NCBI GenBank assembly: GCA_048939245.1 | Contig: JBHLPR010000019.1 | Location: 1-37,514, forward strand | Reading direction: 5' to 3' | Source: Promethearchaeota archaeon | Lineage (GTDB): Archaea; Asgardarchaeota; Hermodarchaeia; Hermodarchaeales; Hermodarchaeaceae | Length of the DNA: 37,514 nt | Position numbers and translations under genes: made by a program | In this document: one piece after another, positions 16,697 to 18,442 of the stretch | Layout of the letters: every line of letters begins with the position of its first letter | Position numbering within the stretch: position 1 is the first letter of the stretch | Notes under the pieces: model-generated | What the model was told of the DNA's origin: nothing | Database searches by the model: none | Seen by the model: only the letters and a program-made list of their open reading frames with translations

Positions 16697-17293
16697 ATGC
16701 CTCAAGTTAGGAATTCACGTATTGCTTCACTAGGAATTCCCATAGGCATTGGAATCGCTGTTATCCTATATATAACTCAACCATACTTGATTCAGCCAAT
16801 CGTCTATACTACATACATTACGCTTATCGATCCCCTTCAATTATATGAGCTAGCTTGGATAATGGCTACTATCGATTTACTCCTGAATTTTTCATTCCAA
16901 TTTTCCTTCCTTCTTTGGATTGCAGTTACTATTATTATTGCACTATTTCTCAGGAAACTTCATATTACTCTCTCAACCCTGAGTGCAGCTATTCTTCTTC
17001 CCGCAGGTACATGGCTCCTTTTTACAATCAAATATCTCTACTTACCCGGATTTTCAATCGGTTTTTTGTTATCATTTCTAATTTGGCAGACATTGCTACC
17101 TCTTGGTATTACGCTAGGGTTGGCAACTCTCATCACTCTACCTTTCATCATATATCAACGACAAAAATCATCTCTCATAACCGCTCCTATCTCGGTCAAA
17201 TCTACCTGCACCAAATGTGGCGCTGTTTACCGATCAAAGCCACAGATTTGCATCCAATGCGGTGAAGAAGGCACATTAATCGATAGTCAATAG
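16697..17293 (+). CDS. Membrane protein with C-terminal zinc ribbon
   Basis: Several TM segments followed by CTKCG...CIQCG. Confidence 0.8.
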   Translation: MPQVRNSRIASLGIPIGIGIAVILYITQPYLIQPIVYTTYITLIDPLQLYELAWIMATIDLLLNFSFQFSFLLWIAVTIIIALFLRKLHITLSTLSAAILLPAGTWLLFTIKYLYLPGFSIGFLLSFLIWQTLLPLGITLGLATLITLPFIIYQRQKSSLITAPISVKSTCTKCGAVYRSKPQICIQCGEEGTLIDSQ

Positions 17294-17373
17294 GTGTTTA
17301 ATTGAGGTTTCAACAATTCCTCTTGTGATTACCGCAATTTTTGTATGGTCGTATTGAGAAAATGATAAAGACT

Positions 17374-17381
17374 TATAATTT
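17374..17381 (+). promoter_or_regulatory. Candidate TATA box for the intergenic RNA
   Basis: TTATAATT preceded by purine-rich GATAAAGA and centred about 24 nt upstream of 17401. Confidence 0.5.
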
Positions 17382-17400
17382 CCACTAATACTAATTCATA

Positions 17401-17532
17401 AGCCGGTCAGGGCAGCGACGCAATTTTAAATCAAACGCAACACCCCTCATAGGCAGAATCCTCCCAAGGCCTCAGGCCCGAATCGTCCTCGCCCTCCAAA
17501 AAATCTCCCTCCTCCCTCGACTGCCCTCCGGC
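17401..17532 (+). ncRNA. Unassigned structured non-coding RNA candidate (~132 nt)
   Basis: 5' GCCGG-TC-AGGGCAG-CGA pairs with 3' TCG-A-CTGCCCT-CCGGC (15 bp). GC-rich island in an AT-rich spacer, with a TATA box upstream and TTTTTTCTTT downstream. Confidence 0.55.
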
Positions 17533-17578
17533 ATCATTTTTTCTTTAAAAGTAATTTCACGCTTCTTGTTGAGAATGC

Positions 17579-18442
17579 TTAGGCGGAGGCTGGTGTGGCT
17601 AGAATGCGATTGCTGATTGCAAACTCTAAAACATCAACAATGGCATATTCGGGGAGTCCTAAAAGGAATGCGATGGTTTTCACATCGCGTTTGCCATCTA
17701 CAAGGAAAAGCACATCTCGCGCGTAAGGACCAAATTTGTCATAGAGTGCTGTTCCAACTGGTGAACCTGTATCGAGGGCTGCAAGGAGATCTTCACCACC
17801 TTGAGGAATGAAGGTCAAATCAACACGTCCTTCTTCAGGGGCTGGTGGTAGAGGTGGTGGACCGGCTTCGGAGGGTTCAGGCGGAGGAGGTTCCATAGGT
17901 GGGGGCATGGATTCTGTGTCTGGAATTGTGGGTGGTGGAATCGGTTCTGCAGGTGGGGTTGTTGCTGGGGCTGGAGTGGGTTTTGGTGGAGGTTCTTCTG
18001 TTTTTACTTCTGAAGAGGGTGTCGGGCTAGGCTGGGGTGGAGGGACAGGAGGTGGAGTCACTGGTTTGGTTAATGGTACGGGCTTTGGTTCGGTTGACAG
18101 TGTTGGCATAGTTTCAATAATGCGGAGGTTCAGTTCGCGAAGGGCTAGCAGCGTTGCTTTGGTTTTCACTACTGCTATACCAAGGGAAAGGTTTGGTGGA
18201 AAAAGCACGGCAAGAAGCCAATTCTCGGCGATTTTAGAGATTACCACAAGACCGGCTTCAGTGTTAACAGTGAGTTGGCTAATCTGTCCTTTATACAGAC
18301 TCACAGTCTCTTTAACCATGGCTTCGGTTTCCTGGTCAAGGGTACTTTGATAGACAGTATTGTCAGGTGATATGATGCAGAAAGCTTTCACCATTCGGTC
18401 GAAACGAAGGTTGTCCAATGCCCGCTGTACTTCCTCGGCCAT
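17579..18442 (-). CDS. Roadblock-like N-domain + Pro-rich linker + C-terminal winged-helix protein
   Basis: N-terminal AFCIISPDN...LTVNTEAGLVVIS...LLAVLFPPNLSLGIA; ~85-aa P/T/E linker; VLFLVDGKRDVKTIA..LGL....IVDVL wHTH pattern. Confidence 0.75.
   Translation of the reverse strand: MAEEVQRALDNLRFDRMVKAFCIISPDNTVYQSTLDQETEAMVKETVSLYKGQISQLTVNTEAGLVVISKIAENWLLAVLFPPNLSLGIAVVKTKATLLALRELNLRIIETMPTLSTEPKPVPLTKPVTPPPVPPPQPSPTPSSEVKTEEPPPKPTPAPATTPPAEPIPPPTIPDTESMPPPMEPPPPEPSEAGPPPLPPAPEEGRVDLTFIPQGGEDLLAALDTGSPVGTALYDKFGPYARDVLFLVDGKRDVKTIAFLLGLPEYAIVDVLEFAISNRILATPASA

Follow-up and report, generated by a model that had tools for sequence, protein, structure and literature searches.

The C-rich element with a closing stem at positions 17402-17532 (+ strand) of the 37,514-nt stretch of DNA analysed here (the window) is very probably a real small RNA gene and the Hermodarchaeia ortholog of a family of Asgard small RNAs, the CU-box family. 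As read from the sequence, it would specify a non-coding RNA of ~135 nt that is transcribed from the + strand between its own TATA promoter and an oligo-T terminator. The orthology was concluded from a common box (CGCCCUCC), a U-tract, a conserved gene order and an upstream palindrome. We regard the RNA as a new, uncatalogued family of archaeal intergenic small RNA with two unusual traits, the loss of a kink-turn (K-turn) and the presence of a paralog specific to Hermodarchaeia. To our knowledge, very few Asgard non-coding RNAs have been recognized beyond rRNA, tRNA, SRP RNA, RNase P RNA and guide RNAs. The features of the element are collected in Table 1.

Table 1. Features of the small RNA gene and of a second small RNA candidate. 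Positions refer to the window except in the last row.
Feature	Position	Strand	Evidence
Imperfect palindrome TTGTGATTACCGCAA, consensus TTGTGAT-N-ATCGCAA, ~65-80 nt 5' of the RNA	17323-17337	+	Kept in Hermodarchaeia genus 1
TTGAGAAAA box, BRE-proximal promoter element, 5' of TATA	17354-17362	+	Conservation
TATA box TTATAAT	17373-17379	+	Conservation
5' stem strand: GCCGG, UC bulge, AGGGCAG, CGA	17402-17418	+	Sequence, fold, covariation
3' stem strand: UCG, A bulge, CUGCCCU, CCGGC	17517-17532	+	Sequence, fold, covariation
Stem pairing, outer part (GCCGG/CCGGC)	17402-17406/17528-17532	+	Sequence, fold
Stem pairing, middle part (AGGGCAG/CUGCCCU)	17409-17415/17521-17527	+	Sequence, fold
Stem pairing, inner part (CGA/UCG)	17416-17418/17517-17519	+	Sequence, fold
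U-tract, single-stranded AAUUUUAAA	17422-17430	+	Near-invariant in both genera
Conserved core AUAGGCAGAAUCC	17449-17461	+	Identical in 16 of 20 distinct sequences, both genera
Small-hairpin region, with GGCC-UCA-GGCC at 17468-17478	17460-17478	+	Fold, alignment
CU box 1, UCGUCCUCGCCCUCC	17483-17497	+	Conservation, genome-wide occurrence
CU box 2, CCCUCCUCCCUC, 3' of an A-rich spacer	17507-17518	+	Conservation
Oligo-T terminator TTTTTTCTTT	17537-17546	+	Conservation
Second small RNA candidate	G000:C11:43904-44074 = L078:905-1075	+	Duplex scan, conservation

Structure and surroundings of the element

The element is single-copy in its genome (assembly of 2.52 Mb, 44% GC, 88% complete) and lies between a 198-aa ORF (16697-17293, + strand) and a 287-aa ORF (17579-18442, - strand), neither of which has a Pfam match. 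Its ends pair over 15 bp interrupted by two bulges, UC at 17407-08 and A at 17520. The minimum-energy fold keeps this closing stem and leaves the interior mainly open; the fold z-score was -2.4, and 4 of 200 shuffles folded as well. When the 18 Hermodarchaeia sequences were folded singly, the closing stem was predicted in every one of them. The 94 nt of the stem interior (17421-17514) comprise 38 C, 27 A, 18 U and 11 G, which corresponds to 40% C and 12% G.

The motifs named in the initial annotation (stem, bulges, two ACGCAA copies, GGCC-UCA-GGCC, CCTCC, TATA box and T-tract) were all found in their places. Its description of the element as a GC-rich island holds in part, as the GC content exceeds that of the genome only moderately (57% versus 44%). 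The ACGCAA copies, at 17418 and 17435, both fall in a variable stretch and are not conserved. CCTCC starts at 17460, 17493, 17508, 17511 and 17525. The small hairpin takes the form CCUCC-CAA-GGAGG in the relatives, and a 3-nt deletion in the window's genome leaves CCU/AGG plus GGCC-UCA-GGCC. One pair of this hairpin changes from U-A in genus 1 to C-G in genus 2.

Promoter, terminator and strand

TATAAT begins 28 nt 5' of the stem, at 17374, and the distance from TATA to the first stem base is fixed at 28-30 nt in all Hermodarchaeia sequences; the transcript is predicted to start at 17402 or just 5' of it. The promoter box is TTGAGAAAA in genus 1 and TTGCGAAAA in genus 2, and TTAGAAAAA stands at the same place in family f20. 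On the 3' side, a run of five to eight T follows the stem by 4 nt in 20/20 distinct sequences. Conservation spans the region from ~80 nt upstream to the T-run and then stops abruptly. The promoter and the terminator assign the RNA to the + strand; the comparison of G:U with A:C pairs (14 versus 16) does not discriminate between strands. The spacing of promoter and T-run in the 20 sequences thus bears out, as far as sequence can, the initial proposal of an independently transcribed, stem-closed, C-rich + strand RNA. In family f12, a counterpart of the palindrome, TTGTGAT(N2)TCGCAA, precedes the orthologous RNA; because it is conserved there and in Hermodarchaeia genus 1, it is likely a transcription-factor site.

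Conservation in Hermodarchaeia

A covariance model trained on the Hermodarchaeia sequences (R1) found one copy in each of the 18 genomes of the GTDB family and none in 132 other Asgard genomes. Six further copies were located in metagenomes. Identity of the element was 79-89% in 14/14 genomes of the window's own GTDB genus, which is also that of Ca. Hermodarchaeum yapensis, and the core was kept in 4/4 genomes of the second genus. The upstream protein has only 33-69% amino-acid identity in the same genomes. Conservation and covariation in relatives had been proposed as a check on the RNA, and both were found. In the stem 87% of alignment cells were paired, eight pairs showed double changes, and the covariation score was reached in 0 of 500 shuffles. 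We grade this as moderate support for a paired RNA stem because alignment shifts account for part of the count. The bulge varies in sequence (UC, UU, UA, UGU or AGU) and in length among the 20 sequences.

Orthologs with a kink-turn in other Asgard families

A search of the phylum for the box motifs (TCCTCGCCCTCC) yielded RNAs that are preceded by a TATA box and closed at their ends by a K-turn. Outside Hermodarchaeia the ends read NNGA-GCC ... GGC-(G/A)AUGA, which is the K-turn signature; the K-turn is the binding site of the protein L7Ae. A second covariance model (R2), built from six of the K-turn-closed RNAs, found exactly one copy per genome in 3/3 genomes of family f12, 3/4 of f14, 2/3 of f20, 1/1 of f8, 4/5 of f7 and 4/6 of f18. 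The large families f4, f6 and f9 gave no R2 match, nor did any of the 18 Hermodarchaeia genomes; R1 and R2 each miss the other's group. The two helices of the K-turn forms covary strongly (9 of 12 pairs with double changes; score 0.442 versus 0.193; 0/500 shuffles), and the signature GA ... AUGA is invariant in 17/17 orthologs. All K-turn forms have a U-tract (GGAUUUUUGG in f14, for example) and CU boxes with the core CGCCCUCC(UCCCC), and their TATA boxes, TTTAAATA or TTTATATA, lie at about -30.

The gene order GGR-up160-up198-sRNA-<GluRS was present, whole or in part, in f12, f14, f20, f8 and f7; GluRS itself was seen in f12 and f14 only. The up160- and up198-like genes encode two small membrane proteins, and GluRS is convergent with the small RNA. 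The Hermodarchaeia RNA shares the CU box containing CGCCCUCC in the loop, its own TATA box ~30 nt upstream, the single copy per genome, and the position after GGR and the small membrane-protein genes and convergent with GluRS, with one extra gene before GluRS. It has no kink-turn in the closing stem, where U-rich loops are found instead, and the dinucleotides at the inner end of the stem (GA, GG, AA or UU) are not conserved. From these comparisons, the K-turn is taken to be lost in Hermodarchaeia, with a plain 15-bp stem and a small U-rich internal loop in its place. The RNA occurs as a single copy, keeps its genomic position in at least seven GTDB families and is better conserved than the neighbouring protein genes, which argues for a basic cellular role.

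The extra gene is the 287-aa ORF, which has the layout Roadblock - polyproline - wHTH and lies between the small RNA and GluRS in Hermodarchaeia only. Its homologs in f6 (~27% identity overall, 36-40% in the Roadblock domain) are head-to-head with an up198-like gene, and a simple composition screen of these f6 loci found no C-rich RNA.

Loop motifs and a second small RNA

The U-tract AAUUUUAAA is a plausible candidate site for SmAP/Lsm proteins. The 11-mer CCTCGCCCTCC occurs at two sites only in the 2.5-Mb genome, in CU box 1 and in a second small RNA (C11:43980). The 12-mer of UCGUCCUCGCCCUCC is also present in the RNAs of f12, f14 and f20, with a one-base variant in f8 and the core in f7 and f18; the latter two families carry CCCUCCUCCC adjoining CGCCCUCCUCCCC. 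Further copies of the 11-mer, in genus 2 as well as elsewhere, were considered as paralogs and rejected, as they proved to be ordinary coding sequence.

The second small RNA candidate came from an RNAduplex scan of the genome whose energies mainly reflected base composition. Conserved in 16 of the 18 family genomes, it combines a TTTAAATA box with a C-rich loop that is closed by a perfect stem of 14 bp (GAAGGAAGCGAAGG/CCTTCGCTTCCTTC). A 16-17-nt box, UCGU(U)CCUCGCCCUCC, is common to this RNA and to the element at 17402-17532.

Three further C-rich stretches were noted in the same genome, at G000:C96:22453-22502 (- strand), G000:C74:27918-27993 (- strand) and G000:C66:13975-14025 (+ strand), none with an Rfam match. 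All six frames are short, with at most 45, 111 and 98 codons between stops, respectively. The C96 stretch, with its TATA-like box and terminal hairpin, and the C74 stretch look intergenic; the C66 stretch is part of a longer inverted repeat, rich in GC, at the end of a contig.

Comparison with known RNA families

A scan of the whole window with Rfam at the gathering score gave no match for the element, and at E<=10 the region 17250-17650 returned only noise (ZEB2_AS1_3 at 14.5 bits, sR53 at 11 bits). Together with the single copy, this answered two of the initial questions, as the element matches no Rfam family and is not a multi-copy MITE or other repeat: one copy is present in the window's genome and in each relative. 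No description of the RNA was present in Rfam 15 or in the literature found on Asgard small RNAs, L7Ae and K-turns, and Hermodarchaeota. ARAGORN found no tRNA or tmRNA in the window, with the qualification that intron-rich Asgard tRNAs may escape this tool.

Archaeal SRP RNA was rejected: the window's genome gave no match to RF01857, and 16 of 18 relatives have a normal SRP RNA of ~340 nt elsewhere. A box C/D sRNA was likewise rejected, as the + strand has neither a C box (RUGAUGA) nor a D box (CUGA). The minus-strand AUGAUGC/CUGA pair is on the wrong side of the stem and is not conserved, and the 11 bits of the sR53 match compare with a gathering score of 49.

Pairing with ribosome-binding sites

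The loop contains four or five CCUCC motifs, which makes the masking of ribosome-binding sites the most economical mechanism. The initial annotation had suggested pairing with GGAGG Shine-Dalgarno (SD) sequences, and such pairing is possible because genes here use GGAGG(TG). A GGAGG peak lies 12-17 nt before ATG in ~107 of 1,755 long ORFs, with GGAG and GGTG giving larger peaks. In relatives, GGAUCACCUCCU forms the end of the 16S tail. The bases 5' of the CCUCC motifs are AU, GC, UC and CU, so that pairing cannot extend to GGAGGUG and the RNA does not faithfully copy the CACCUCC of the 16S tail. For the strictly conserved G in the box (CGCCC), a specific protein or target is a better explanation than generic SD masking.

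Target prediction did not strengthen the case. The best contiguous helices of the loop with the 1,755 start regions (top scores 31, 30, 30) equalled those of the reversed RNA (32, 30, 30) or of shuffles, with no excess. There was no long antisense match in complete genomes of relatives or in the window's genome, where the best blastn-short alignment (17/18 nt, E 0.39) fell in a coding region. With wobble allowed, the complement of the 11-mer had seven sites beyond the two small RNA genes, none at a clear start codon; one of the seven lies 9 nt before a TTG whose status as a start is doubtful. In five genomes, of which two are complete, the complement of the CU-box 16-mer, also with wobble, was no more frequent than its reversed control. 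Complementarity to the 16S rRNA loci of two relatives was within the shuffled range, and inspection by eye of the ribosome-binding sites of five neighbouring genes showed no notable complementarity.

Two observations were made in the course of these searches. A three-copy match to the 16-mer complement in the complete Asgard genome G029 is not rRNA; it lies inside a repeated 569-aa ORF (L194, G029:C1:1926500-1929500 and two other copies) that carries a CU-box complement of 13 nt, GGGAGGAGGGCGA, and is probably a mobile or paralogous gene. The 16S gene of Ca. Hermodarchaeum yapensis (L122, G006:C71:619-4212) extends over ~3.6 kb for 1,478 model positions and has an insertion near the 3' end, and another congener (L123) also has one there; these insertions are probably large rRNA introns.

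Discussion

In the mechanism that we tentatively favor, the RNA would mask purine-rich sites by antisense pairing. The closing stem would hold open a largely unpaired loop, as the predicted fold suggests, and the loop would display the U-tract, which may bind Sm-like proteins, and the CU boxes UCGUCCUCGCCCUCC and CCCUCCUCCCUC. The boxes would pair in trans with purine-rich GGAGG/GGGAGG sequences at or near the ribosome-binding sites of a subset of mRNAs, and by analogy with Methanosarcina sRNA41 such pairing could block the initiation of translation. The upstream palindrome suggests that transcription of the RNA may be regulated.

That the element is not a free-standing RNA is very unlikely. 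It could instead be the 3'-UTR or terminator of the upstream membrane-protein gene, a DNA-level element (G-quadruplex or i-motif) or the complement of a minus-strand micro-protein gene, and the gene on its 5' side is indeed always the same and in the same orientation, with seven tracts of three or more G, a 19-codon ORF and other short ORFs on the minus strand of the element. However, the TATA box, which is conserved, lies between the stop codon of the upstream gene and the stem at a constant spacing, and the stems covary at the RNA level. No ORF is conserved on either strand of the element: some genomes lack the ATG of the minus-strand ORFs, one has a stop after six codons, and the frame shifts over the variable spacer. 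The indels are not multiples of three, and no minus-strand promoter is conserved. The G-quadruplex and the minus-strand ORF, both offered initially as alternatives, were set aside as unsupported or rejected. The initial annotation also compared the RNA to Y and vault RNAs, and the bulged paired ends, the pyrimidine-rich loop, the 3' U-run, the size and the Asgard host do give it a superficial likeness to them. A homolog or analog of these eukaryotic RNAs, working with Ro60/La or the major vault protein, is nevertheless extremely improbable. The Y RNA covariance model (RF00019) had no match at E<=10, the bulge is variable, unlike the conserved Ro60 site, and the relatives of the RNA carry a K-turn, which is absent from Y and vault RNAs. 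The 88%-complete genome had no match to Ro60/TROVE (PF05731), for which the positive control in Deinococcus matched, to La, searched without a positive control, or to the vault repeat (PF01505), for which no positive control matched. The suggested search for protein homologs was fruitful only for Sm proteins, as the genome has three LSM genes, and it has two L7Ae-family genes as well.

A protein-binding scaffold or sponge is possible though doubtful. The CU boxes and AUAGGCAGAAUCC would then be sites for KH/poly-C-type proteins, SmAP or, in the K-turn forms, L7Ae, and the RNA would work as a stable ribonucleoprotein, sequestering or delivering a protein, rather than as an antisense regulator. 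Long stretches of the RNA are invariant base by base, without the looseness usual in antisense seeds; no targets stand out; and the second Hermodarchaeia RNA presents the same 16-17-nt box in a different scaffold. The conserved U-tract and the LSM and L7Ae-family genes point the same way, and the invariance of the K-turn signature in the orthologs makes at least one protein partner likely for the K-turn forms. Yet no candidate CU-box-binding protein was found, and the RNA is linked to protein genes only via conserved gene order. Moreover, Hermodarchaeia kept the RNA despite losing the K-turn, which argues that L7Ae binding is not its core function. Since the invariance of the box, the K-turn in relatives and the U-tract suit a protein-bound particle equally well, antisense masking is put forward as a tentative reading and the scaffold is kept beside it.

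A further reading, which we consider unlikely, is that the CU-box RNA is the core of an ancient Asgard ribonucleoprotein with an L7Ae-bound kink-turn, an Sm-type U-tract and pyrimidine boxes that recognize purine-rich RNA, of which Hermodarchaeia would have a K-turn-less derivative and a duplicated paralog. The combination of a K-turn with an Sm-type site is otherwise typical of eukaryotic spliceosomal U4-type snRNPs. If true, the CU-box particle would be an undescribed kind of archaeal small RNP with a bearing on the origin of eukaryotic snRNP and snoRNP architecture. 

The distribution of the RNA amounts to a natural experiment: six families have it with a kink-turn, and Hermodarchaeia have it without and add a second RNA with the same box. 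Should the boxes mask ribosome-binding sites, this RNA would regulate translation across a whole lineage of the prokaryotes most closely related to eukaryotes; should they bind proteins, the RNA would define a new archaeal ribonucleoprotein.

Comparison with known systems

In proposed function there is a likeness to sRNA41 of Methanosarcina mazei, for which masking of ribosome-binding sites was reported (Buddeweg et al. 2018, summarised in PMC5867862). sRNA41 is, like the Hermodarchaeia RNA, an intergenic archaeal small RNA with a proposed role in translational repression through the masking of ribosome-binding sites (PMC5867862). It has experimental targets, whereas the predicted targets of the Hermodarchaeia RNA show no excess, and the likeness drawn here is one of proposed function. 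Y RNA resembles the element in its paired ends with a bulge, pyrimidine-rich internal loop and 3' U-run, and differs from it in the covariance model, the Ro60 partner and the conservation of the bulge. RsaE/RoxS of Firmicutes are bacterial small RNAs with C-rich regions in hairpin loops and with shown targets. Like the Hermodarchaeia RNA, they expose C-rich motifs to which G-rich SD sequences could pair. The parallel is no more than an analogy, as their folds, with hairpin loops, differ from the closed panhandle described here.

The closest match is to the K-turn CU-box small RNAs of f12, f14, f20, f8, f7 and f18. Single copy number, a TATA box ~30 nt upstream, an open, pyrimidine-rich loop enclosed by paired ends, the U-tract and the CGCCCUCC core are common to both, as are GGR, the two small membrane-protein genes and GluRS as neighbours, and the palindrome is shared with f12. 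The Hermodarchaeia RNA is longer (135-165 nt versus 90-125 nt), has the invariant block AUAGGCAGAAUCC in addition, and is separated from GluRS by the inserted Roadblock-wHTH gene, unlike the K-turn forms. Where these have GA ... (G/A)AUGA, the Hermodarchaeia RNA has a U-rich loop of 1-3 nt.
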